Origin: an uncultured bacterium
GTDB lineage: Bacteria; Planctomycetota; UBA1135; GCA-002686595
Direction: 5' to 3'
Assembly (NCBI GenBank): GCA_943787795.1
Contig: CALSNU010000006.1
Span: forward strand, 160,001-224,000
DNA length: 64,000 bases
The translations under genes and the position numbers were made by a program. Each line of letters begins with the position of its first letter. Position 1 is the stretch's first letter. Positions 26,519-40,823 of this stretch are shown here, in pieces. The notes under the pieces are model-generated. The model was not told where the DNA came from. It saw only the letters and a program-made list of their open reading frames with translations, and did no database searches.

Positions 26519-26875
26519 GGGGGCGCACTGGTTTCGACCGGTTTCCGTCGCTACCAGGTTGCGTGCCGGGGATCCCAGGTCACCCCGCTAATCATCCCGG
26601 GAACGGCATCTTACTTGCCGACAACAACTACGCACTGGCAGCCTGAGAGTTGCCCGTCTTCGCCTGGAGTGCCCGTGGCCGGGCGAAGACGCCATTAGCG
26701 GGCTGGTCGCAACGCTGCGCCTCGGGGCCGCGCGACGAGACTTTACCGAGGCTGGCTCAGAAGCAATGTGTCCGCGGGCGGCTGCTGAGTGAGATCTATG
26801 CCGGTGGACTATGCACGTAGACGCCGGGTTGGTTGCGATTCCGGGACGGGGGTTCGACTCCCCCCGCCTCCACCA
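26519..26875 (+). ncRNA. ssrA: transfer-messenger RNA; tag reading frame ADNNYALAA* at 26617-26646
   Basis: 5' GGGGGCG..GGTTTCGAC, 3' GGTTCGACTCCCCCCGCCTCCACCA with a G-U acceptor pair, YALAA tag, and smpB nearby. Confidence 0.97.
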
Positions 26876-27245: not shown

Positions 27246-27349
27246 GGAGGTGAATCGGAGGACCCGGCGATGACCCGGCCAGGAAGGCGGGCTCGGGCCC
27301 AGAGTTGACCACCGGGCATTTTGCGCGATCGTTGCTACGACTCCGTACG

Positions 27350-27538
27350 TTACGCGCTCCAGCGGGTGGGCGGGTTGGAGCCCGGCGCGACCCCCGTCCC
27401 CAGCGGCCCACGCCACTGCCCCCAGTGCGCCTCCGCCGGGGCCGCCACGGCCGTCCCCAGGTCGTCGGTCTCCTGGGCGAGTCCGGTCGATCCGAGGGCG
27501 CACGCGAGCGCCAGGACTCGAGCGAGCGGAGCGTTCAT
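27350..27538 (-). pseudogene. truncated N-terminus of a PQQ-binding-like beta-propeller protein
   Basis: Signal peptide followed by HWGQWRGPLGTGVA...PPTRWS, then a stop after 62 aa. Confidence 0.65.
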
Positions 27539-27849
27539 GGGATCACCCTACGCTCCCGAGCGCGGCATCGTTGGCCTCGGACGCAGGCAAGCTTCCGGCC
27601 CCTGTCTCCAATGTGGGGGCGAGCACCTGCTCACGACCTCCTCTGCCGAACCGCGCCCGTCACAGTGGCTCCGCGGCACCGCCTGCGGCGGGCGTCACCG
27701 GAGCCTCGCGGGCAGCGAGTCCGAGGGCTCCCGGGTCGAACAGCGGGAGGATCCGGCAGGACCGCGATCACGGGGGGGGCGGGAGGCGCTTCAGCGAGGA
27801 CCGAGACGGGCGCTTGAAACATGGAGGGCTCCTTTACGAGGCTGAGTGC

Positions 27850-28734
27850 ATGTCCTGGTCACCCGCCATGCTCATCCTCGCAGCATCCACCGCCATCCCC
27901 CTTCTCGTCGCCGCCGCGTCGGGTCCGCCGCAGGCGGAGGCGAGCGGGGCCCTGAAGCACCAGGATGCTGCTCGCTACGACGGCGCGCCGTCGTTCGATG
28001 GCTCCCTCCCGCCGGGAACGGTCGCGGTGGCGCGCCAGCCGGTTCGGTGGAGCCGACGGGACCCCGGCTGGGAGGTGAAGGGGAGGACCAGCGATTGGCC
28101 TGCGGCGATCGAGCGGCGATTCATCGCGCGCCTGCAGGGGATTCGGGGGGCCGACCTCGACCTCGCCGCGCATCACGCCGACCTCGGCGTCGGGGGCGAG
28201 TGGGAGAGCTGCAAGGGGGCGTACCGAGCCGTGCTCCCCGGCGGCGTCGGGGTCTACGTCGTCCATCATGGCTCCGGCTTCGCGGGGCGAATGGAGCTCT
28301 CGGTCGTCCTTCATCGCCCCGCCACCGGGGAGGTGAGTCGCGGGACCGGGTCCTGCGGGCTCCTGTGGTCCCAGGTCGGCAGCGAGGGACCGAGGGCCTT
28401 CTGGTCCGACATCGACGGCGACGGCTCCGTCGAGCTCGGGTTCCAGCTCCACCACCACAACGGCACGGCGTCGGACGGCGGATTCATCCGCTGGCTCCGG
28501 ATCACGGACGACCTCGACCTCGAGGAGGTGCACGTGTCACGGCTGTACGACTGGGTGAGCGTCGAATCGCGGCGAGAGGAGGGCTTCATCAGGTACCGGC
28601 TCCTGCGGGACCCCGACGGGACCCTCCGGGATGAGGCCTGGTTCGAGACCCCCTCGTTCGGACTCGGGCCCGTTCGCGTCCTCGATCACTCGCTCGGTGT
28701 TCCTCGGGGCGGCGAGCGGTTCAGCTATCGCTGA
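27850..28734 (+). CDS. hypothetical secreted protein with a DxDGDG calcium-binding-like motif
   Basis: MSWSPAMLILAASTAIPLLVAAA signal-like segment; WSDIDGDGSVELG. Confidence 0.65.
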   Translation: MSWSPAMLILAASTAIPLLVAAASGPPQAEASGALKHQDAARYDGAPSFDGSLPPGTVAVARQPVRWSRRDPGWEVKGRTSDWPAAIERRFIARLQGIRGADLDLAAHHADLGVGGEWESCKGAYRAVLPGGVGVYVVHHGSGFAGRMELSVVLHRPATGEVSRGTGSCGLLWSQVGSEGPRAFWSDIDGDGSVELGFQLHHHNGTASDGGFIRWLRITDDLDLEEVHVSRLYDWVSVESRREEGFIRYRLLRDPDGTLRDEAWFETPSFGLGPVRVLDHSLGVPRGGERFSYR

Positions 28735-29490
28735 CCCGCCGCCGCTCCGCCCCGCCGAGCCCCGGCCCTCACTCTCCCTTCCAGGCGGTCATGTGGCCCT
28801 CGATCTCGTCCAGGACCCAGGGCGTCTGGACCACGACCAGCTGGAGCTCCGCTGTCATGCGGATCGAGAAGGCGGGGTCCTGGTCCCAGGTGTCTCTGGC
28901 CACGTGCTGGCTGAGGTAGGCCTGGGCGAGGGACGGGCTCCGGGTCGGCGCCCCGGGCGTGGGGGCCAGCGCGGCGAGCTCCGGGTAGGCCGCCAGGGTG
29001 GCGGGATCGAACTCGCCGCCGTCCAGCGTCTCCCGGAGGTCCATCCAGAGCACCTCCTTCGCGGACGACTCCACCTCCTCCTCGGCGAGGACGCAGACGC
29101 AGCCGCCGAGGACCTCGAAGGTGAGGCCGGCGCTCGGCCCGGGGCGGCTCAGCAGGTCACGGGCGCCGGCCGTCCAGAGCACGCCGACTCCCCGCTCCTT
29201 CCCCGCGGCGGTCAACCTCGCGGTCAGCGCGCCGGTGTCCATCCGTGCCAGTGCGCGGACCCCGCCCAGGGCGCGCACGAGGGGCGCGGCGCGCCGATCT
29301 GGTCCGGAGGAGGCGCTCCTCGAGGTGCCGCCGGGTACGCCCCGCGCCGGGCAGCGGGAGGCGGAAGGCCCGAAGTCGGTCGAGGAGCGCCTGGGCACGC
29401 AGCTGGGCGCGGGGCAGGTGCCGGACGAGCAGCGCGTCCGGCTCCGCGGTCACCCGGTCGCCCTGGTCCCAGCGGTGGAGGTCCCCGAGG
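28724..29490. repeat. 767-bp direct repeat, copy 1 (3' end of the ECF sigma gene)
   Basis: Near-identical to 34597-35363 at offset 5873, with a few substitutions and two single-base indels. Confidence 0.95.
28769..29490 (-). pseudogene. 5'-truncated, frameshifted duplicate of the ECF sigma gene 3' end
   Basis: Encodes the same C-terminus (...DEIEGHMTAWKGE); has one extra C at ACGCCCCGCG (about 29340) relative to copy 2 and no native start. Confidence 0.8.
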
Positions 29491-29593
29491 AAGAGAAGAA
29501 GAAGGCTAAGAAGCTCAACGCTTCACCTGCCTCCAGGCAGGCCAGCACGGCGTATTGCGCACTGAGCAAGGGCATCGAGATGTGCTACGGTCA

Positions 29594-30364
29594 CTAGAGT
29601 GGCGGGTCGACGCTGAACGACTCGACGACCAGCGTCTGTCCTCGGCGACAAAGAACGTCGATCATCGGGAGGACTCCATCGGGGACTTCCTTCGTGAACA
29701 GGACCACGATCTGGCCAGACGAACTTGGTTCGATCGACGGAGGGGATTGCACGACCTCAATGCAGTCGCAACTCTCCGAGACTTCGACCAAGGTGATCGG
29801 ATCCTCTGTGGGGTTCCAAATAGACATGACCGCTTGGTGTGCATTCACTTCGCGGTGCAGCACGACAAGCCGAGAGCCGTCTCCGGGACCACTCAGACCG
29901 ACGCAGACGCCGATGGCGATTGATGTGATTCCGATCGAAGCATCGAGCGACGCGAGTGCGCCGAGTCGTATTCTCCCGACGACCGCGCCCACGAGCGACA
30001 CACCTAGCACGGCCGACCAGACTGCCCAAATGAGGCCAGGGCTCGCGCCGATCACGCCGAGGCAGCCACAGTCCGGCCCGAGGTCACGGCGGATCAGCAG
30101 AGTACCGATGCACCACCCCGCCAGAGAGAGCGCGTTCAGTCTTGACGTGGTGCCGCGGAGCAGAAGCCAGGCGGCTGCCGCCTCGCCGAAGATCGACAGC
30201 TCGTGGAGCCGCCAAGCGAATCCTCCGGCAGCCAGGAGCCGGCCGCTCGGGTTCCGGTCCGCGAGCGTCGCGAAGACCACGGTGGCGAACAACGCACCGA
30301 GCAAGATGCGGAGGCCTCGGAGTCCGCGGGTGAGCCCAGTCTCTTCCTGCTGCATCGGCGTCAC
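29594..30364 (-). CDS. MauE/DoxX-like membrane domain fused to a DUF1573-like Ig domain
   Basis: TM segments with EAAAAWLLL and GPDCGCLG (MauE CGCxG); C-terminal IWNPTEDPITLVEVSESCDC...IEPSSSGQI; GTG start overlaps the upstream TGA. Confidence 0.7.
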   Translation of the reverse strand: MTPMQQEETGLTRGLRGLRILLGALFATVVFATLADRNPSGRLLAAGGFAWRLHELSIFGEAAAAWLLLRGTTSRLNALSLAGWCIGTLLIRRDLGPDCGCLGVIGASPGLIWAVWSAVLGVSLVGAVVGRIRLGALASLDASIGITSIAIGVCVGLSGPGDGSRLVVLHREVNAHQAVMSIWNPTEDPITLVEVSESCDCIEVVQSPPSIEPSSSGQIVVLFTKEVPDGVLPMIDVLCRRGQTLVVESFSVDPPL

Positions 30365-31401
30365 CTGGAGACGAAATGGACAGGGATGACTATCGCGGCG
30401 CCCGTCGAGCGAACGATGACCTGCCCGATCCCGGGCCCGGTGAAGCCCCTGGGAACGGACAGTGATAGGGTATACGAGTTGCTGTCCGGCTCTCTCGGTT
30501 CGATCGAGACGGCAGTGAACACATCTCCGATCTGATCGACGCTGGTTCCCCTCCAGCTCGGATCGCTTGAAGTGATCCGCACCTCCGTACTCGCGACACG
30601 CAGGGAGTCGATGAAGCCGAGGGAGAGGGCGTCCGGGTGGACGGTGAATTCTGCGCTCTTCCGAAGGACGATGGTGCGAAGTAGAAACCGCGGAGTCCCC
30701 ACCGATTCACTCTCGACGAACGTGTCGAAGTGGAACTTGCCGAAGGGCGTGGTGACCGGGTCGAACGTCGGAGTCAGCAACAGATTCCGGCCGTGGGCCT
30801 CGACGTCCCACGACACGAACTCGGTAGTGCAGCTGACGGCGACCGAGTCCATCGATATCCCCTCGTCAGCCCGCAGCGTTACCGGAAGGCCCGCGTAGCT
30901 CGCTCCCTCACCGAGCTCGATCGTCACGGGGTTGGCCCGTGTCGACCATGCGCTTCGTACATCGAAACGAACTTTGCCGACTCGAAGGAGTGAACGGTCG
31001 TCGTTGAGTTCTGCGAATATCGTGCTCTCTCGTTTACCCGGTGCACCTGTGTCCAACTCGCAATCCACGCTGAAGCGCTGTCCCGACCCGACGGTCCGTT
31101 GGCTGCTCGACGCCTCCACGCACCCGCAACTCGTCCAGATTCGCTTGATCTGGAGCGCCCCACCGGACCGATACTCGAAGTCGAACGACGCACGCGCGAC
31201 CGATCCACGTTCGACGGAACCCAAGTCGATGACCTGCTCCGAGAGGCGAACAACCCCGATATCCTGTTCCACCAACGGGCTTGCCGTCGTCGGCAGCGCG
31301 TCTACCGAGAGCGCCAGGAGCCCCATTCCTCCCGCCAGGCAGAAGAGCAGAGTCCCGACCGCGAATCGGACGAGCTCGCCATTTCCCTTCTTCTTGGCCA
31401 T
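30361..31401 (-). CDS. DUF1573-domain exported protein with tandem Ig-like domains
   Basis: N-terminal TM or signal, IDLGSV...LQIKRIWTSCGC...VGSGQ, then repeats starting ANPVTIELG and VHPDALSLG. Confidence 0.75.
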   Translation of the reverse strand: MAKKKGNGELVRFAVGTLLFCLAGGMGLLALSVDALPTTASPLVEQDIGVVRLSEQVIDLGSVERGSVARASFDFEYRSGGALQIKRIWTSCGCVEASSSQRTVGSGQRFSVDCELDTGAPGKRESTIFAELNDDRSLLRVGKVRFDVRSAWSTRANPVTIELGEGASYAGLPVTLRADEGISMDSVAVSCTTEFVSWDVEAHGRNLLLTPTFDPVTTPFGKFHFDTFVESESVGTPRFLLRTIVLRKSAEFTVHPDALSLGFIDSLRVASTEVRITSSDPSWRGTSVDQIGDVFTAVSIEPREPDSNSYTLSLSVPRGFTGPGIGQVIVRSTGAAIVIPVHFVSR

Positions 31402-31410
31402 GGCTTGGCG

Positions 31411-32769
31411 TCAGGACTTCCGGAATACGACGACGAATGCAATTCCGGCAAAGACGACACCCAAGAGGGCCAAGGGCCACCTACGTCCTCCGTTGCTAGT
31501 GCCCGGGCGAGCGCCCGTTTCGGCATCCAGCGGCGAGTTGGCGCTCGCGAAAGGGGCTTCGGAAACGCTCTCGCCGGAATCCACTCGTGCGGGCATCGGG
31601 TGCAAATCTCGTTCCACCGCTGCCTCTGCGGCGATCGACGCGATCCGCTGATCGTCGACGGGGATCAGTCCCTCGACGTACTCGATCGCGGGGTCGACGC
31701 GTTTGTCGATGACCCTCGAGCCCGGCCGAATCAGGATGCTCCGGGGGCGAGGCTCGCCGTCGGTCTCGGAGAAGGTCCCTGAGAATGAGGTCACAGAACG
31801 AAGTTGGGCACTCTCGCTCGGCCAATACGTGCGGTGCTCGACGCCCAGGGGGGCCGCACTTCCATTGGCTTCAACGAAGTCACTCGCCTTGAGCTGCTCC
31901 ACGACCTGGCCCCGGGCATTCGTCACCGTGTAACGCACGAGGCCCCCGTGACGTGCATCGAGCACGGCTTCGAACCTCCCCGACACGAGGCAGAGTGGGG
32001 GGCGCGCGATGTCGGGCCAGGGCCCCTGTGGCGAGCTCACGTCTGCGACCGCCACGATCGTCGAGCTTGAGGAGTCGCTCGTGACGTTCCAGATCCGGGG
32101 CTGATTCTCGAAGCTATGCGCTAGGAAGCTGACCGACTTGTAGTAGGTCTGCCAGTAGGGGGCTGGGACCATTCGAACGACCGTGTCCTCGGAGGTGAGT
32201 CCGATCGTCGCCGAAAGGGTAGCGGGGATCTCCCGCGCCTCGTCTGCTGCGGTTGTGAGCGAGTAGATGTACTCCTGGGGCCGGACCTGCAGGTAGATGT
32301 TCGATCGAATGACCTCGTCTTCGAGCCGTTCGTCCGGATCGAAGGACTGGGAATAGTCGAATACGCCATCGTGCACCGCGAACTCGAAAGGGCCTCCGTG
32401 CGTGTGAGGTCCGGGGATCGTCTGCCGAACGAGAGTCGCGTGCTCTCCCGCTCGCTCGCGGAGGATCGCGTCGATCTTCGAACTGCTCGGCGGGTTGCCG
32501 CTGTAGAGCTTCGACCTGGACTCCACCAGGGCTTCGAACAAGTAGTCCTCGAGTCCGTTCGCGACGGCGGGCTGCATCTCGTGGAAGTACGCGGAGTACT
32601 CCATCGAGTAGCGTCCGATCGGATAGCCCTCGGTCGAGCGCCGCAGTTGCTGCGCTACGAAGACCGAATCGAGTGGCTGCGCGGCCGCGGTGGGCTCGCC
32701 TGCGGTCTGTACTCCGGCGGTCCCAACCGCCAAGAGCGCCAACTGTGCAATGCACGAAAACGAAGCCAT
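31411..32769 (-). CDS. hypothetical exported protein with a C-terminal membrane anchor
   Basis: Signal MASFSCIAQLALLAVGTAG; beta-rich body with a LolA-like-looking segment (VLDARHGGLVRYTVTNARGQVVEQ); ends RRWPLALLGVVFAGIAFVVVFRKS. Confidence 0.7.
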   Translation of the reverse strand: MASFSCIAQLALLAVGTAGVQTAGEPTAAAQPLDSVFVAQQLRRSTEGYPIGRYSMEYSAYFHEMQPAVANGLEDYLFEALVESRSKLYSGNPPSSSKIDAILRERAGEHATLVRQTIPGPHTHGGPFEFAVHDGVFDYSQSFDPDERLEDEVIRSNIYLQVRPQEYIYSLTTAADEAREIPATLSATIGLTSEDTVVRMVPAPYWQTYYKSVSFLAHSFENQPRIWNVTSDSSSSTIVAVADVSSPQGPWPDIARPPLCLVSGRFEAVLDARHGGLVRYTVTNARGQVVEQLKASDFVEANGSAAPLGVEHRTYWPSESAQLRSVTSFSGTFSETDGEPRPRSILIRPGSRVIDKRVDPAIEYVEGLIPVDDQRIASIAAEAAVERDLHPMPARVDSGESVSEAPFASANSPLDAETGARPGTSNGGRRWPLALLGVVFAGIAFVVVFRKS

Positions 32770-32915
32770 ATTATGCTCACTAGAGGTCAGTCGTGCCGAG
32801 TCGCCAACCCAGAAATTGGGAAGGGCTCCGGAGAAGCCCTTCCCGCGGGTCATTCGCGACGACTCGGCGGGCGCCGGTTCAATCAAGTTTGACTGCGCCG
32901 GGCGTCAGTACGCGG

Positions 32916-34259
32916 CTAGATCGGGTCGCAGTCAGGAACAAGCGCGTTGCCCGGCGCCGGTGAGGCTGCAAGGCTGAAGCAGCACTGGTGTCCCATCGGC
33001 GCCAGATGGGGGTCCATCGTAGCCGGGAAGAGAGCGCCGAATATGCCGCCGAGGAGCCCGCCGTGCTGCGGTGTGCACGGTTGGACCCACACGGTGACGA
33101 TGAAGCCCGCATTCGGCATGAGCCTCGCCACCACTGCGCAGTTCCCGAATCCGGAGCACGAATAGCGGTCGTATCCATGTCGGTGCTCGCCATTCGTGTC
33201 GCGATTCCGAACACAGGGTGCAGCGATTGTCGTCTTCACGCACTTGCCACAGCCCCTGCGATCGAAGTCCGCTGGAACCCCGGGGATCGTCGTGGTGTTG
33301 TTGCACTTGTCGTAGAACCCCTTGGTCGGTTCCGGGTCGAACTCGGGGGAAGCAGGGCCGTTGACACCGAGAACGTCGTTCGGAAGGTCCAACGTCTCTG
33401 CGACCTTGAAGGTCGATGCAATCCCGCCAGGGAACAAAGCGGTACTCGCTTTGACCGTGAAGGAGGTTGCGCCACCGCCCCAAGCGGTGTTGGCATAGGC
33501 GTTGAACGACCCAGTCACGACCACCGCGTGTTCACCGTTGGCGATGGTGACCGACGCCGGTAGATCGAGAGAATCCAGGATCGATGCCGGTCCCGAATAT
33601 TTAAGGGTGACGACTTCGTTGCCGACCTCGTTATCCCTAGTGACCACAAACTGCAGCGAGTCAGTCGTCCGAATGCCGTCGATCCAGGACTCGTGGGGGG
33701 GGACGATGGAGTAGCCCGGAAGTGAAGTCTGAATCGAATAGACTTCGTGATCGTCATGCCCGGTCACCGACGTATTAGTGACTGTCATCGATCCAACTGC
33801 ACCGACGTAAACGTGGAAGTCCTGAGTGTTGATCAGGATCGGATTGAGCATCATGCCCGAGTGCATGGGCACATGCGCCACAAACACCGTTGAGGTCGGA
33901 TTCGAGCTGGCCACTCGAAGGTCCGCGCGCGGAACCTCGAAGTATCGAGCGCTCCCTTCTTGATACCAGTCCACCCCATTATAGTCGAGCGCGACGGCGA
34001 CCTTGGGGGCCGTTCCTGTATCGGCGACGAAGCCGATCTCGATGTAGCCATGACTCACCGCAGAGTCGATGTTCGTGGTCCCCGAGGGATTGAGTACTTG
34101 GCCTACGCCCGTCCCGGGGGTCCAGGCAGCGCGGCTGACAGTCATTGAGCCGCCTTGGCAGGCAGGCACCGTGGCAGACGCGTTCGTTGCGAAAAACGAG
34201 CAGAGGATTGGGAGGGCGGCAACGGGCAAGAGTGCTCGCCCGAACTTAGAATGCTTCAC
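32916..34259 (-). CDS. secreted protein with a Calx-beta/Ig-like segment and a Cys-rich C-terminal domain
   Basis: Signal MKHSKFGRALLPVAALPILCSFFATNASA; FVVTR...VTLKYSGPAS...LPASVTIANG; 10 Cys in the last about 130 aa. Confidence 0.75.
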   Translation of the reverse strand: MKHSKFGRALLPVAALPILCSFFATNASATVPACQGGSMTVSRAAWTPGTGVGQVLNPSGTTNIDSAVSHGYIEIGFVADTGTAPKVAVALDYNGVDWYQEGSARYFEVPRADLRVASSNPTSTVFVAHVPMHSGMMLNPILINTQDFHVYVGAVGSMTVTNTSVTGHDDHEVYSIQTSLPGYSIVPPHESWIDGIRTTDSLQFVVTRDNEVGNEVVTLKYSGPASILDSLDLPASVTIANGEHAVVVTGSFNAYANTAWGGGATSFTVKASTALFPGGIASTFKVAETLDLPNDVLGVNGPASPEFDPEPTKGFYDKCNNTTTIPGVPADFDRRGCGKCVKTTIAAPCVRNRDTNGEHRHGYDRYSCSGFGNCAVVARLMPNAGFIVTVWVQPCTPQHGGLLGGIFGALFPATMDPHLAPMGHQCCFSLAASPAPGNALVPDCDPI

Positions 34260-34596
34260 GAAATTGAGTGGCTAGAGGGTAACGAGTAGCGCTCGTCGAT
34301 CACATACCACAGCCTACGTCTCTCAACTCCGCCTTGAGAGGACGGCTACTCCAGCCCTCAGAGGCGTGCGAGCTACAGGGGCCGAGGTGGATAAGCGATC
34401 CAAGCTGCCACTTGGCGGAGCAGCGGGTCGTGGGGGTGATTGAAGGGGAACAGAAGGGAGGGGCGAGGACCGCCCCGGCCGAGGGCCCGGCCCAGGGAGG
34501 GGCCGCTGAAGCGCTCTATGATCAAGGGTAGGGGAGAATAGCTAGCCTCGCAACGGGTGATGCGGGAAAAGTCCCCACCCTGGGCCTCGCCGCTGG

Positions 34597-35363
34597 GCTA
34601 TCGCTGACCCGCTGCCGCTCCGCCCCGCCGAGCCATGGCCCCTCACTCTCTCTTCCAGGCGGTCATGTGGCCCTCGATCTCGTCCAGGACCCAGGGCGTC
34701 TGGACCACGACCAGCTGGAGCTCCGCCGTCATGCGGATCGAGAAGGCGGGGTCCTGGTCCCAGGTGTCTCTGGCCACGTGCTGGCTGAGGTAGGCCTGGG
34801 CGAGGGACGGGCTCCGGGTCGGCGCCCCGGGCGTGGGGGCCAGCGCGGCGAGCTCCGGGTAGGCCGCCAGGGTGGCGGGATCGAACTCGCCGCCGTCCAG
34901 CGTCTCCCGGAGGTCCATCCAGAGCACCTCCTTCGCGGACGGCTCCACCTCCTCCTCGGCGAGGACGCAGACGCAGCCGCCGAGGACCTCGAAGGTGAGG
35001 CCGGCGCTCGGCCCGGGGCGGCTCAGCAGGTCACGGGCGCCGGCCGTCCAGAGCACGCCGACTCCCCGCTCCTTCCCCGCGGCGGTCAACCTCGCGGTCA
35101 GCGCGCCGGTGTCCATCCGTGCCAGTGCGCGGACCCCGCCCAGGGCGCGCACGAGGGACGCGGCGCGCCGATCTGGTCCGGAGGAGGCGCTCCTCGAGGT
35201 GCCGCCGGGTACGCCCGCGCCGGGCAGCGGGAGGCGGAAGGCCCGAAGTCGGTCGAGGAGCGCCTGGGCACGCAGCTGGGCGCGGGGCAGGTGCCGGACG
35301 AGCAGCGCGTCCGGCTCCGCGGTCACCCGGTCGCCCTGGTCCCAGCGGTGGAGGTCCCCGAGG
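34597..35363. repeat. 767-bp direct repeat, copy 2
   Basis: Matches 28724-29490; lies within the intact 3' end of the ECF sigma gene. Confidence 0.95.
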
Positions 35364-36683
35364 GCGTCGCCAAGCTCGTGGACAAGCCCGTCGGTGCCGC
35401 TGCGTGCCGTGCGATACAGCGGAGGGGGAACGGCGCCATCCTCGAAGTAGGGGACCGGGTCGAGGCGGAGGTCCTCGAGCCGGTACTCGAAGTCGACGGC
35501 GTGCTCCATGAGCTCCCCGAGGTCCGCCACCTGGACGGCGCCGTCCGCCACCTCCCACCGGGGGCGGCCCTCGGCGAGGCCGAGGGTCAGGGCGAGCCAC
35601 CGGGCGAAGCTGACCTTGGTCGGTCGAACCAGCCACCGTGGGTCGGACGGCGTGGTCGCGCGGGCGGCGCCTTTCGCGACCACGATCGGCACCGCCGCGG
35701 CGCTGGACAGGCGGGTGAGCGTCGTGCCCAGGGGCTCCCCGGGGGTCCAGGTGGGCGGTTCGACCCCGAGCGACTCGACTCGCGTCCGCAGAGCCCGCTC
35801 GGCTTCGGGCTCGTCGATCACGTAGCGGGGGATCCCCGCGCGGGCCTCCCGCACGGCGGTCCAGTACGGGTGCTCCTCGGCGAGCAGGGCGACGCGCTCC
35901 TCCGGCTGCTCCGCTGGCGCGAGGAGGCCGCGGGCCCCCATGGGGCCGAGGCCGGCGAGGGCCACCGGCCCCCGGGCGTGCCCCGAGGGCACGGCCGCGT
36001 GCGCGCCTCGATCCGCTGGACGGCCCAGGTCGGCCCACGGAGAGGGGAGCCAGCCGAGGAGGAGGCCGGCGGCCAGGGCGCCCGCGACCGCGAGGGCCGC
36101 GCCGATCCCCTGGACGGAAGCGAGGGGCAGCGCCGGGGTGGCCGCGGCCAGGGCGGAGAGCCGCCCGCGGCTCTCATCGTCCGCGCAGAGCCGGCGCTGC
36201 AGCTCCTGGTGGGCGCGATGGAGGCGCGTTCGAACGGTGCCCGGGACGACCCCGTCCACCTGCGCGATCTCGGGGACGCTCATCCCCTGGTCGTAGCGGC
36301 GCACCACCGTGCTCCGATAGGGCTCCTTCAGGCCCAGCACGGCCCGAACCACCTCGTGGCGAAGCTCCAGATCGCTAAAGGGCTGGCACTCGTCCCTCGC
36401 CCCGCTCTGCTCGTGGAAGCGGCGGCGCCGGGCCGCCCGGTCGCGGTTTCGGCTCACGCCCCGGACCGCCGCCTGCAGCCAGGGACGCAGGCCCCGCCCC
36501 TCACGGTCCCGAGAGGGGGGGCGGCCCGCCGGACGGGGCCCTCTCGAGTGCGCGGACCCAGACGTCCTGCGCCACGTCATCCGCCTCCGCGGGGTGCCGG
36601 GTCAATCGCAGGGCCAGCCGGCGGACGAAGTCCTGCTGCTGGATGAGGGCCTCGTGAAGGTCATTGGCGGTTCGCTGATGCAT
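34643..36683 (-). pseudogene. ECF sigma factor with TM helix and periplasmic extension, frameshifted in a C7 tract
   Basis: AGGAG RBS and ATG at 36683; sigma2 DFVRRLALRLTRHPAEADDVAQDVWVRAL stops at 36501; LRPWL and sigma4 (LKEPYR...EIAQVDGVVPGTVRTRLHRA) continue in another frame; removing one base from G7 at 36515-36521 joins them. Confidence 0.8.
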
Positions 36684-36889
36684 GGTCGTCTCTCCTACCC
36701 TGATCCCTCCGGCGGGTTTGCGAACGTTCCCGAGACGACCTTCTTTTCTCGGAGGCATCGCCGCGCGCCCCACTCGGCGGCCCGAAGGAGAAGCCTGAAT
36801 TGGCTATGGGATCCGGCAGTGGCTCGCCACCCCTCTTCCATGCGAGCGGGGCCCACCGCCGGAGCTCCGAGGAGCCCCGGCCGCGACCG

Positions 36890-39874
36890 TCATTGGAACG
36901 TCACCGCCACCGCGTCCGTGAAGTTGGATGTGGTCTGCCCGCCGACGGCGTCCCGGTACCAGAGCTGGTAGTTCCAGGTCTCGCCGGGTTGGACGGTGAC
37001 GAGGCCGGTGGGGGTGGGGTGGGTGTTGAGGTTGATGTCGAGGAGGATGCCGCCCGCGGCGCCGGAGCTCTTGATTTGCCCCGGGCCAACGAAGCGCCCC
37101 ACGCTGCCGGAGAGGCAGAGGGTTCCCTGGCTGTTGGGGACGTTGGGGGTGAAGCCCGAGGTCTGCGAGGTGATGAAGAAGCCGAAGGAGCTGGCGGGCA
37201 GGGCTCGGGCCGTGAGCGCGACGTTGTTGAGAGAGCTGGCCCCGTCACCGATCACGGTCAGCTCACCGGGGAGGCCCGTGGAGTTGGTCACCGCAGGGCT
37301 GCAGTAGGTGGACCCGATGGACTCGCAGGCGTCGAAGGTCCCGTTCCCGTTGAGGTCGAAGGTCGGGTCGCCGGCCAGCTGGCAGAGGTCAGGGACGCCG
37401 TCCCGGTCGCAGTCCGTCACCGTGCCGCTCGTGATGTCGCAGCCATCCGGGATGCCGTTAGCGTTGCAGTCCTCGGCCTGCGGGATGAAGAGCTGGTTGC
37501 GGTAGGTGAGCACCTGATCACCGGTCCAGACCGCGACGGCGAGGTCCGGGACTCCATCCGCATCGAGCCGGGCGGCGCAGACGAAGCTCGCGCGGTTCAG
37601 GCCGGCACCCACGGTGACCTTGGGGCCGAAGCTCGCCGCTCCGAGGTTCTCGAACCACGCCACCTCGCCTGCCGGGGTGGAGCCGAGTCCGTAGGCGGAG
37701 GCCGCGAGGTCCAGGTCGCCGTCGAGGTCCAGGTCCGACACCGTGAGGCTCGAGGCCCGCGGCAAGTCTGTCGAGACGATCTCAGCGGGGCCGAAGGTGA
37801 GGCTGCCCTGATTGGCGACGAAGCCGAGTGAGCCATCTGCGACGGAGGTGAAGGCGATGTCCAGCTGCCCATCACCGTCGAGGTCCGAGGCGCGGACGAA
37901 GCTGGGCTGGTTCACGGAGGCGACGAGGTGCTCCACCCAGCCAGCGCCGAGGCCCAGGTTCTCGAAGACGCGAACGGCATTGTCGTCGCGCGATGCAGCA
38001 AGCACGTCGAAGTCCCCGTCGCCGTCCACGTCGGCGGCGTCGACGCAGAGCACATGGTCCGCCGAGCTGGTGATGGTCTGCCGAACGCCGAAGGAGCCGC
38101 CTCCCAGGTTCGGGTACCACGCCACCGTGTCGTCGTTGAGTGAGCCTGCGATGACGTCCACGCTTCCATCTCCGTCGATGTCCGCATGTCGGACCGTGCG
38201 GGCGCCATCCAGGGCGGTATCCAGGGGCAGGCCGGGGCCGAATGACCCTCCAAGGTTCAGGTAGAGGCTGATCGTGTCGGCCGCGGACTCCGCGGTGACG
38301 AGATCCTCGTCCCCATCCCCATCGGCGTCGAACAGGGTCACCGAGAAGACCCCCGGCGCCTGGCTGGTGATCAGGGTCTCGCCTCCAAACTGGCCGGTGC
38401 CGTCGTTCGCGAACCAGTAGACGCTGCTTCCACTTCGTCCGGCGACGACGAGGTCCAGGTCACCGTCGAGATCGACATCAGCTTCTTCGACCGCCCAAGG
38501 TGCGCCAAGCGGCCCGGCGTTGATCTGCGCGGCGCTGCCGAAGCTCGATATGCCGGCGAGCTCGCAGCTGTCTGGCGTTCCGTTCCCGTTGCAGTCGGCT
38601 GCAAATCCGCTCGTGATGTCGCACTCATCGGGCAGGCTGTTGCCGTTGCAATCGAAGCTGGTGCCGTTGGCGATGTCGACGCTGTCCGCAACGCCGTTGC
38701 CGTTGCAGTCCAGGAGGAGATTCTCGTACCACGCGAGCCTGTCGTCGATGACGCTCGTCGACAGCACGTCTGCGTCCCCGTCCCCGTCCAGATCCGTGGC
38801 GAAGACCGTCACGGCCCCGGTCGCCACCGTCGTGATCACCTGCTGGGCGCCAAACACGCCTCCGCCCTGGTTCTCGTACCACGCGACCTTGTCGTCGTCG
38901 CGACTCGCCGACAGCACGTCCGCGTCCCCGTCCCCGTCCAGATCAGTGGCGTACACCGACCAGGCAGCGTCCGCGCCCTGGGTGATCACCTGCTGGGCGC
39001 CGAACACGCCCCCGCCCTGGTTCTCGTACCACGCAATCTTGTCGTCGCCAAAGCTCGCAGACAGCACGTCCGTGTCCCCGTCCCCGTCCAGGTCCGTGGC
39101 GTAGACCGAGATCGCACGGTCCGCGTCCGTCGTGATCACCCGCTCGGCGCCGAACACGCCTCCGCCCTGGTTCTCGTACCACGCGATCTTGTCGTCGTCG
39201 CGACTCGCAGACAGCACGTCGGCGTCCCCGTCCCCGTCAAGGTCGGTCGCGTAGACGGACTGGGCCGCGTCCGCGACCGTGGTGATCACCTGCTGGGGCC
39301 CGAAGGCGCCTCCGCCGAGGTTCTCGTACCACGCAATCTCGTCGTCGAAGCCGCTCGCGGACAGCGCGTCCGCGTCCCCGTCCCCGTCCAGATCGGCGGC
39401 GTAGACCGAGAGGGCAAAGTTCGCGCTCGTGGTGATCACCCGCTGGGGACCGAAGGCGCCCCCGCCCAGGTTCTCGTACCACGCGATCTTGTTGCTGGCG
39501 AAGCCCGCAAACAGGACATCCGCGTCTCCGTCCCCGTCCAGGTCGGTGGCGTAGACCGAGGTGGCGCCGCTGGAACTCTGCGTGAGCACCTGCTGGGGAC
39601 CAAAGGCGCCTCCGCCCAGGTTCTCGTGCCACGCGATCTTGCCGTCCAGGTAGCTCGCGGAGAGCACGTCCGCATCCCCGTCCCCGTCCAGGTCGGTGGC
39701 GTAGACCGAGAGGGGATCGTCTGCGCTCGTCGTGATGATCTGCTGTGGACCAAACGACTGGGGCGTCGAGACCGAGGCCAAGGCCACGGCGCCGATGCCG
39801 GACAGCGCGGCCTTCAACAGGCTCGGAGATCCCAGGCCGGGTGGAGAATCGGGGGACGGGTACACAAACGCCAT
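36890..39874 (-). CDS. secreted FG-GAP/VCBS repeat protein (two 7-bladed propellers, DCNGNG repeats, conserved C-terminal domain)
   Basis: Seven copies of the ATDLDGDGDADVL...AWYEN unit, DCNGNGxPDxCD repeats, seven further DxDxDG blades, C-terminal YCSPAVTNSTG...WYRD...SNFTDAVAVTFQ. Confidence 0.9.
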   Translation of the reverse strand: MAFVYPSPDSPPGLGSPSLLKAALSGIGAVALASVSTPQSFGPQQIITTSADDPLSVYATDLDGDGDADVLSASYLDGKIAWHENLGGGAFGPQQVLTQSSSGATSVYATDLDGDGDADVLFAGFASNKIAWYENLGGGAFGPQRVITTSANFALSVYAADLDGDGDADALSASGFDDEIAWYENLGGGAFGPQQVITTVADAAQSVYATDLDGDGDADVLSASRDDDKIAWYENQGGGVFGAERVITTDADRAISVYATDLDGDGDTDVLSASFGDDKIAWYENQGGGVFGAQQVITQGADAAWSVYATDLDGDGDADVLSASRDDDKVAWYENQGGGVFGAQQVITTVATGAVTVFATDLDGDGDADVLSTSVIDDRLAWYENLLLDCNGNGVADSVDIANGTSFDCNGNSLPDECDITSGFAADCNGNGTPDSCELAGISSFGSAAQINAGPLGAPWAVEEADVDLDGDLDLVVAGRSGSSVYWFANDGTGQFGGETLITSQAPGVFSVTLFDADGDGDEDLVTAESAADTISLYLNLGGSFGPGLPLDTALDGARTVRHADIDGDGSVDVIAGSLNDDTVAWYPNLGGGSFGVRQTITSSADHVLCVDAADVDGDGDFDVLAASRDDNAVRVFENLGLGAGWVEHLVASVNQPSFVRASDLDGDGQLDIAFTSVADGSLGFVANQGSLTFGPAEIVSTDLPRASSLTVSDLDLDGDLDLAASAYGLGSTPAGEVAWFENLGAASFGPKVTVGAGLNRASFVCAARLDADGVPDLAVAVWTGDQVLTYRNQLFIPQAEDCNANGIPDGCDITSGTVTDCDRDGVPDLCQLAGDPTFDLNGNGTFDACESIGSTYCSPAVTNSTGLPGELTVIGDGASSLNNVALTARALPASSFGFFITSQTSGFTPNVPNSQGTLCLSGSVGRFVGPGQIKSSGAAGGILLDINLNTHPTPTGLVTVQPGETWNYQLWYRDAVGGQTTSNFTDAVAVTFQ
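38715..39745 (-). repeat. seven intragenic 150-bp tandem repeats
   Basis: TCCCCGTCCCCGTCCA-like and TTCTCGTACCACGC-like blocks recur with a 150-bp period. Confidence 0.9.
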
Positions 39875-40823
39875 ACTTTGAGCGTAGCACCGGGCCCTGC
39901 TCCAGCGGCGAGAGGGGCGAGTTCTGGGCCATCCAGTACGCACGAGCCAGGCCCAAGCCCCATGGAGCGCCTTGGTTCAGCCCTACCGTCGAGCCCAGAC
40001 TCCGTTTCGGGACAGTCCCCCCCCCGTCGCGCTTCGCTCAAGGCCGCTGGCGCCCTCCGGCGATCGCTGCTCCATGCTGGATCGATGCGAATCGCACACC
40101 GCTGGCAACGACCAACGGATGCGGTAGCCATCCCGCTGGAGGGTTCCCCGACCCGCCGGGGGAAGGCGGCGCCGTCCATCGGCGCCGCTCTCTCGAGCCC
40201 AGAGGTCTCGGCACGAAGATGGCGATCTTCCGGCTCAACGGGGCCAGCTACCGGCTCAATGGAGCCAGAGCGCGAGGCGACCGGATAGAGCCACCGGCCT
40301 GATGAGAAGGCCCCGACTTGGAGGGCTCAGGTCAGGCTACGGTGAACCGATTCACCGGCTTGACGGCTCGAGCTGCGATCCAGGAGGCCTCAGCCCTCCT
40401 GCACTCGGGAGGAGCCCTTGGGAGAGGAGCTCCGAAAAGACTCGGACGTCCCTCGAGCAGTCGGCTGATAGGAACAGGCAAGATCGGCAAGGCTGCCCCT
40501 GACGCTTTCGGTGATCATGGGCCAGGCCACGAGCAGGCGTTGAAGGTCCTGATCAAGGTGGGTGGCTGCATCGGAAGGCAGACGGCCACCGGCACCATCC
40601 GCCCCCAAGGCCCGGAGGATGGCGGAAGTGCCGATGCCGGAGCTCTGCTTTCCGCTGGGGCGCCCAGCTTGCCCAGGCGACGGGCCAGACTCCCATTGAC
40701 CCAGGCCCAACCTGCTGCCGGCCCGCTTACCCACCCCGCGGGGCTGAGTGCACCGTCCTTCGGCCTGGTCGGGTCAAGGCGAGCCGCCGCCTCGAAACAT
40801 CCCGGCGCGGCTCGGGGGACACC

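Follow-up and report, generated by a model that had tools for sequence, protein, structure and literature searches.

The locus

The window analysed here is the 64,000-nucleotide stretch covering positions 160,001 to 224,000 of contig CALSNU010000006.1, from the genome of an uncultured planctomycete (GenBank assembly GCA_943787795.1). It carries an insert with four co-oriented genes on the minus strand, g1 to g4, the last three of which are tightly packed, with a 9-bp gap between g2 and g3 and a 4-bp overlap between g3 and g4. The first gene, g1 (32916–34259), encodes a putative cargo protein of 447 amino acids with a signal peptide, two predicted immunoglobulin (Ig)-like (Calx-beta-like) β-sandwiches and a C-terminal domain containing ten cysteines. 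It is followed by g2 (31411–32769), which encodes 452 amino acids when counted from the ATG, the open frame extending to 32886. From its phmmer family, AlphaFold2 model, Foldseek and VIA comparisons and hydropathy, the g2 product is predicted to be an exported β half-barrel of the LolA/LolB superfamily with helical inserts, a low-confidence linker and a C-terminal membrane anchor. The product of g3 (30361–31401; 346 amino acids) has an N-terminal hydrophobic anchor or signal, a DUF1573 Ig domain with CGC at residues 92–94 and a further β-rich region. The last gene, g4 (29594–30364; 256 amino acids), which we consider accessory, encodes a likely degenerate MauE-like membrane domain fused to a second DUF1573 domain, with CDC at residues 199–201.

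A first-pass annotation of this DNA, made from the sequence alone, had described the same gene order and spacing, and it had also noted a richness in A+T that is borne out by a G+C content of 62.6% in the insert, as against 69.0% in the remaining window. The three thiol motifs that it listed, TSCGC, DCGCLG and SCDC, were all found in the translated open reading frames. A Pfam scan of g1 to g4 and of four neighbouring genes found no match to the mau families mauA, mauB, mauD and mauG; elsewhere in the window, only a rough list of open reading frames was inspected.

At least half of the words of this DNA are found in each of 14 public marine DNA runs, five of which are possibly source runs. None of the 15 differences listed for another strain breaks a gene, and two adjacent changes in codon 38 jointly specify Arg; in that strain, the start codon of g1 is ATG. 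RNA contigs from two studies are confined to g1 and its leader, the absent cover elsewhere being uninformative and DNA carry-over uncontrolled. The DNA of g1 occurs in the RNA libraries of three studies, which is not proof of transcription, and a scan for promoters and terminators gave matches at chance level only.

An exported protein with a cysteine-rich tip

The ten C-terminal cysteines of g1 lie between residues 319 and 444, as first annotated, and C20 and C34 precede them. No Pfam family matched g1, and word-index searches with g1 and g3 returned only self matches; homologues were reached through the g2 profile described below. The resulting g1 family comprises five full-length homologues with 26–34% identity, and eight cysteines are invariant over six distinct proteins. 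Outside the cysteines, the tip is 11–32% identical between distant members. The pair C349 and C426 is jointly missing from one homologue and an extra cysteine pair has been jointly gained in three, the pattern of disulfide partners. The first-pass annotation had expected a variable cargo; instead, the cysteine skeleton is conserved across two families and is not hypervariable here.

The AlphaFold2 model of g1 has a mean pLDDT (predicted local distance difference test score) of 58, with most of the cysteine domain below 50. Its top Foldseek match was NCX1 (E = 2.4e-7), in a search that barely probed the poorly modelled cysteine domain. Comparison with VIA yielded generic Ig folds, at Z up to 9.7, a root-mean-square deviation (rmsd) of 2.5 and 101 aligned residues, and the ESM Atlas returned weak Calx-beta leads only (0.81). 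When the alignments of g1 and of g2 were searched against PDB sequences, no match below E 0.8 emerged. We predict from these models that g1 is composed of two Ig-like domains and a cysteine-rich C-terminal tip. Hydropathy analysis also revealed a Gly-rich hydrophobic stretch at residues 374–390 and another near 400–412.

A predicted LolA-shaped anchored partner

A phmmer search with g2 against 1.84 billion representatives gave 19 matches, 11 of which were aligned; g2 itself (present in two copies), five long matches of repeat-like character and one 785-residue protein were omitted. The AlphaFold2 model of g2 has a pLDDT of 79.5. Foldseek matched it to 9tp6 (E = 1.2e-5), and VIA aligned 212 residues with 9tpm (Z = 11.4, rmsd 7.2). 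The top structural matches are all LolA, LolB, RseB or DUF1329 proteins, and these comparisons suggest that g2 contains the unclosed β half-barrel that is characteristic of that superfamily (PDB 9tp6, 9tpm, 3bk5 and 4z48). Unlike those proteins, to which its identity is 5–12%, g2 has a predicted fold that runs to approximately 360 residues, helical inserts included; it is also anchored in the membrane at its C terminus and has a fixed neighbour gene that does not encode a lipoprotein. No Pfam or NCBIfam family, including those of the LolA type, matched it. Hydropathy peaks at residues 4–20 and 433–449 agree with the export and the C-terminal transmembrane anchor that had been annotated. Complex prediction with g2 (residues 28–396) and the g1 cysteine domain gave a score of 0.01.

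A DUF1573 protein with a CGC motif

The assignment of g3 to DUF1573 was confirmed by a match to PF07610 with E = 5e-12 and 46 bits, against a cut-off of 26.1, and the CGC motif is retained in all four related g3 genes. Against the NCBIfam OS_HP2 selenoprotein family (NF041425), g3 scored 23 bits, the cut-off being 100. The Ig-like domains of g3 and g4, with their CGC or CDC, resemble those of DUF1573 proteins (PF07610; OS_HP2, NF041425), a family that has selenocysteine (Sec) at the first cysteine in some genomes. However, g3 has Cys instead of Sec and lies within a cargo cassette, not in the common run of DUF1573, rhodanese and MauE genes.

In the accessible parts of two papers, DUF1573 is tabulated as a selenoprotein with a UGC motif (PMC9312934, PMC13188914). 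The first cysteine of DUF1573 is encoded by TGA in two of the three loci that we fetched. When Sec and Cys are exchanged in a protein, the position usually marks a catalytic thiol. Together, the TGA codon and the listing as a UGC selenoprotein point to redox catalysis. In two related genomes, loci L233 and L235 encode DUF1573 proteins with TGA at the first cysteine of CGC, which are candidate selenoproteins.

DUF1573 occurs in 185 of 251 genomes of the phylum, and MauE in 154 of the same 251. Among the best 150 of 302 MauE matches and the best 150 of 500 DUF1573 matches in these genomes, DUF1573 and MauE lie at most 3 kb apart at at least 17 places, and the gene between them encodes a rhodanese in all three cases tested. 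This DUF1573–rhodanese–MauE run recurs at L139, L141, L142 and other loci of the phylum, with no obvious small cargo in the parts viewed; it is probably a housekeeping form of the same redox pairing.

A likely degenerate MauE homologue

The first-pass annotation read g4 as a fusion of MauE and DUF1573. Its DCGCLG and SCDC motifs stand, and so does the second DUF1573 domain, although as a borderline match (E = 1e-5; with the cut-off at 26.1 bits, it scored 25.9 and, when the whole genome was searched, 26.8). The MauE assignment fared less well. Pfam PF07291 did not match g4 at E ≤ 1, which places the protein below the gathering cut-off, and weak support came only from a home-made profile of 70 MauE sequences. 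The N-terminal part of g4 is colinear with this profile and scores 5.8 bits, a value reached by three of 2,000 shuffles; hhalign against the profile gave 77% and E = 2e-5. With a 28-sequence profile of divergent MauE proteins, 36 of 2,000 shuffles scored as high as g4; with a 26-sequence profile, g4 scored below the best shuffles.

The likenesses to MauE (PF07291) are a helical membrane domain, the helix-2 Glu found in 69 of the 70 profile sequences and the CGC at residues 99–101, which aligns with the CXC before the last MauE helix and is followed by L-G where F-G is usual (F in 53 of 70). Hydropathy peaks lie at residues 18–34, 75–92, 114–130 and 142–158, with helix 2 under the threshold. 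Unlike MauE, g4 fails the Pfam model and has Thr33 in place of the Lys that ends helix 1 in 69 of the 70 domains; no variant at this codon is among the differences listed for public runs. The third helix is short, and a Phe present in 58 of the 70 is missing. The partner differs as well, being an Ig-fold DUF1573 domain and not a thioredoxin (MauD, DsbA). From its sequence, g4 is likely to be a degenerate MauE homologue that is not a member of the family by two defining tests.

A canonical-looking MauE, in which K, E and CGCFG are kept, is encoded on another contig of the same genome, at G000:C1:1188861-1189934. The accessible part of a recent preprint reports that MauE proteins from two phyla replace DsbB in Escherichia coli in a manner that requires the CXC motif, proposes that the conserved Lys and Glu hold the quinone and expects a thioredoxin-fold partner (bioRxiv 10.64898/2026.03.05.709764). 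MauE is reported there as a general DsbB-like oxidase, which makes oxidative folding plausible for the cassette.

Conservation of g1, g2 and g3 in relatives

A profile of g2 was searched against 301 genomes of the class, with five candidates scored per genome, and matched in four genomes, all of one family, yielding four other loci. A g1 homologue lies directly upstream of g2 at all five distinct related loci (four genomes, two families); at one of these only the last 69 codons of g1 are present, and at another a transposase gene interrupts g2. Directly downstream of g2, all four intact related loci have a DUF1573 gene with CGC. None of four related loci has a MauE-like gene after the trio, one of the contigs ending 750 bp past g3, and no real homologue of g4 was found in 173 other genomes of the family; three weak g4 matches there were rejected as unrelated DNA. 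The absence of a linked MauE-like gene and of any g4 homologue in these relatives suggests that g1–g2–g3 is the conserved unit and that g4 is an add-on. The earlier expectation of a recurring unit around a cysteine-rich exported protein holds for g1, g2 and DUF1573, and does not hold for MauE. The proposal that all four genes form a module equipped with a functional MauE is not sustained, g4 being absent in relatives, unmatched by PF07291 and devoid of the near-invariant Lys.

A profile of the g1 tip matched three of the 251 phylum genomes: its own, G175 (weakly) and G062, which belongs to another family. The G175 match (E = 0.008) was rejected, as no cassette is present there. In G062, an intact g1 precedes the transposase-cut g2 in two identical copies. 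This g1–g2 pair sits in a 5.0-kb unit that occurs twice at 100% identity (L181:9327-14328 and L182:9415-14416) and has 110-bp terminal repeats. From its motifs, we take the transposase to be of the IS66 type.

Small exported proteins with 8–14 cysteines are encoded upstream of MauE at three of 20 hand-picked weaker MauE loci and at at least one locus outside that set. The proteins at L157:5957-6409, L214:9576-10001, L215:4759-5355 and L220:7186-7605 lie just upstream of MauE or CarboxypepD_reg genes. A relationship between the g1 tip and the small cysteine-rich proteins of MauE cassettes was rejected, the similarity being non-significant in all five tested (at best, 20 of 500 shuffles scored as high), as was one between g2 and the anchored protein of one such cassette, which could not be aligned.

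Our literature search, which thinly covered subscription journals, found no published description of the g1–g2–g3 cassette and, with the same coverage, nothing on DUF1573 together with MauE. The trio is conserved and apparently undescribed.

A tentative oxidative-folding model and its alternatives

Given the observed gene order, conserved cysteines, domain calls and repeat anatomy, we infer a mechanism in which g1–g3 form a cargo-specific folding module outside the cytoplasm. The CxC motif of DUF1573 would relay disulfides from a MauE oxidase, probably an intact one encoded elsewhere, and g4 would be accessory. We hold this reading tentatively, as one that may well be correct and that falls somewhat short of probable. 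It begins with g1 being exported unfolded, after which the membrane-tethered g2 would hold the unfolded cysteine-rich tip near the inner membrane. The CGC of the membrane-tethered g3 would then pass disulfides into the tip, a DsbA-type job done with an Ig fold. Re-oxidation of g3 would fall to a quinone-linked oxidase of the MauE type, most likely the intact one encoded elsewhere in the genome; g4 would add at most a relay, because the Lys for which quinone binding is proposed is missing from it. The product would be a two-Ig stalk with a disulfide-locked tip, possibly a binding protein, secreted or displayed on the surface, for example an adhesin. That g3 is the disulfide carrier is suggested by the replacement of DsbB by MauE, by the Sec at the first cysteine of DUF1573 proteins and by what Sec-for-Cys exchange usually indicates.

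The cassette would then work like a dedicated oxidative-folding cassette, of the kind in which mauE and mauD serve MauA, yet it is not a mau cluster. As in the mau case, thiol motifs are paired with one disulfide-rich exported protein; unlike it, the cargo is not a dehydrogenase subunit and the relatives manage without a linked MauE. A PF07291 match above the cut-off is present elsewhere in all four genomes with related loci. The first-pass annotation had also proposed a dedicated export module, and no finding points to an export function.

Several points weigh against the folding model. The co-occurrence of the trio is seen at few, partly related loci, because the family is small and only five candidates were scored per genome. 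Three other DUF1573 genes of the same genome stand without such a trio, and no redox assay of DUF1573 was found in the literature examined. The PF07291 matches in the four genomes have an unverified CxC and may include DoxX proteins. LolA folds mainly transport lipids or lipoproteins, and inspection of the g1 sequence by eye revealed no clear lipobox.

The alternative that survives best, although we consider it unlikely, is a structural display complex in which the anchored g2 and g3 stay bound to g1 and present it, their CxC being structural or metal-binding, while a general Dsb or MauE system folds g1. The fixed gene order, the membrane anchors on g2 and g3, the mostly Ig-like scaffold of g3 and the absence of a dedicated oxidase at all four related loci would be explained as well by such a complex. 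Nevertheless, the Sec at the first cysteine of other DUF1573 proteins, as given in the accessible part of PMC9312934, fits catalysis better, and so does the repeated linkage of DUF1573 with MauE.

It is less likely still that the four genes are self-contained, with g4 acting as an active quinone-linked oxidase that passes disulfides through its own DUF1573 to g3 and on to g1. Colinearity with MauE and retention of the Glu and of CGCxG speak for this arrangement, and g4 is an intact, translationally coupled open reading frame with one conservative change in another strain. The loss of the Lys and the Phe, the short third helix, the failure to match PF07291 and the absence of g4 from the related loci and the family genomes speak against it.

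We also think it rather improbable that the locus is a conflict system, with g1 as an exported antibacterial effector, g2 as the anchored protein that confers immunity to it and g3 as an aid to folding. The invariable position of g2 directly downstream of g1, the patchy distribution of the unit (four of the 301 class genomes), its presence on mobile elements both here and in G062, and the two hydrophobic stretches of g1 would all suit such a system. However, the g1 tip is conserved between families and not swapped, no toxin family matched in Pfam or NCBIfam, and G062 keeps two copies of an intact g1 beside a transposase-cut g2. Finally, transport of a lipid or another hydrophobic ligand to or from g1 in the g2 cavity, with disulfide chemistry incidental, would account for the LolA-type structural matches of g2, but it is very improbable: those matches have low identity and high rmsd, and the constant DUF1573 CGC neighbour and the MauE-like fusion would be left unexplained.

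Arrival of the insert

Two 767-bp direct repeats, 98.8% identical over 768 columns, enclose the insert, which is precisely the unique DNA lying between them. Copy 1 (34597–35363) is the 3′ end of a host ECF sigma-factor fusion gene (34643–36773, minus strand; Sigma70_r4_2, E = 2e-8) plus approximately 45 bp downstream. Copy 2 (28724–29490) is a 5′-truncated duplicate of that gene end and overlaps the stop of a convergent gene (27571–28734). A tmRNA gene (26519–26875, plus strand; identified with ARAGORN) lies 2.6 kb away and borders a variable region. Between copy 1 and g1 is the right-end remnant (oriIS side) of an IS91-family element, approximately 210 bp long (34387–34596, minus strand), pointing at g1 and without a transposase. 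The repeats, which bound the segment described in the first-pass annotation, were overlooked there, as were the IS91 remnant and the tmRNA gene. At the other border, an open frame on the plus strand (29491–29596) runs from the junction to a stop beside that of g4; this frame is likely to be the last 34 codons of a fifth, convergent gene that has lost its 5′ part at the repeat border.

An assembly artefact was rejected as the origin of the repeat. It assembles as a separate contig that ends at the repeat borders and has about twice the flank depth (depth being a rough guide), and contigs from independent runs break 30 bases inside it, one of them spanning the junction between the element and the ECF gene. 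The breaks and the depth argue that the repeat is not an assembly error. The junction between the element and g1 is spanned at 100% by a contig from another sample.

The 210-bp element recurs on contig C4 of the same genome at 91–92% identity. One copy there lies downstream of a C-terminal Y2_Tnp fragment (G000:C4:694904-695086; 23.1 bits against a cut-off of 20.9) that is absent beside the window copy. We counted 60 distinct metagenome junctions with at least 12 downstream bases, four shorter ones being dropped. In all 60, the element has a fixed right end at the tetranucleotide C-C-[A/C/G]-C (C-[A/C/G]-C after the end), followed by unrelated DNA, the division between target letters and element-end letters being unsettled; in the complement of the tetranucleotide, T is second in 52 of the 60. 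Earlier readings of this upstream repeat as a coding motif or an integron attC site were dropped because of the transposase fragment and the fixed end.

An oriIS end with a tetranucleotide target is described for IS91, with CTTG, GTTC and GTCC given in the accessible part of the source (PMC13181058), and the accessible part of another reports that integrons linked to ISCR1 carry a duplication of the 3′-CS (PMC3575428). The element resembles IS91 and ISCR elements in that a Y2_Tnp remnant lies upstream of one copy of this right end, in its subterminal palindrome and in the fixed end by a tetranucleotide; it differs from them in that only the 210-bp right end is present and in having a tetranucleotide other than the three given in that part of PMC13181058. 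With ISCR1-linked complex class 1 integrons the insert shares the order of host segment, element, captured genes and truncated duplicate of the host segment; unlike those integrons, it carries envelope-gene passengers on a planctomycete chromosome, where such passengers often stand in arrays. A step-by-step model for ISCR1-linked integrons was reportedly set out by Toleman et al. in 2006.

By analogy with those integrons, the cassette probably reached this site in two stages, one-ended rolling-circle transposition that started at an IS91-type right end and then integration via the duplicated ECF end. Some observations argue against this route. The left borders of the IS remnants do not significantly favour any sequence (32 of 67 where 29 were expected; p = 0.25), no complete IS91-type element and no circle was seen, and no intact transposase was found in the 85%-complete genome itself. 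In addition, the tetranucleotide with which repeat copy 2 begins has a third letter that occurs in none of the 60 right-end junctions, which leaves the first transposition step without direct support. Homologues of the ECF gene occur in two of 17 other genomes of the genus (G481 and G262), with other DNA downstream in both. In the sister species G481, DNA that matches the region next to the tmRNA gene begins within approximately 200 bp of the ECF end, and there is no cassette.

Contig C4 carries an array of about ten IS91 right-end copies, 40–840 bp long and 1–10 kb apart, with unrelated passenger genes between them (G000:C4:694000-723100; L007, L008). The arrangement recalls the cassette array of an integron, but one that has no integrase. 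Matches to this stretch are present in 15 of 18 genus genomes, and the end motif occurs in 68 metagenome stretches. A second repeated end-like sequence, at 27285–27353 between the tmRNA gene and the insert, recurs at G000:C1:340110 and C4:701616, often near IS91 remnants, and is possibly the end of another rolling-circle element. The gene at 27571–28734 is an orphan of 387 amino acids between the tmRNA gene and repeat copy 2; it is probably another passenger, as one run with the cassette leaves it uncovered and G481 lacks it at this site.

Near 29340/35214, one base distinguishes the two repeat copies. The reading frame of the ECF fusion gene is broken into two near 36515, and two public runs differ by one base at 36514–36515; the split is either an assembly error or decay. 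Beyond it, a gene at 36890–39943 encodes an FG-GAP repeat protein, and the DNA of its C-terminal domain recurs at dozens of sites in the same genome.

Implications

What the locus adds is a large conserved cargo, evidence that a linked MauE is dispensable, a fusion of MauE with DUF1573 and the anatomy of an IS91 capture event. That event provides a chromosomal, non-clinical case of the gene-capture layout known from ISCR1, with right-end remnants in 15 of the 18 genus genomes. In a broader and more doubtful proposal, which we regard as possible though rather unlikely, DUF1573 would be an Ig-fold, non-thioredoxin disulfide carrier that partners MauE, as the g4 fusion would reveal. Together with an anchored LolA-fold holdase, it would constitute a third type of cargo-specific pathway for oxidative folding. 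IS91 right ends that lack a transposase and assemble passenger arrays like those of integrons would have spread this pathway among planctomycetes. The locus suggests an Ig-fold partner for MauE and supplies a defined substrate in which five predicted disulfides may be mapped; it offers a direct test for DUF1573, a widespread family of unknown function.

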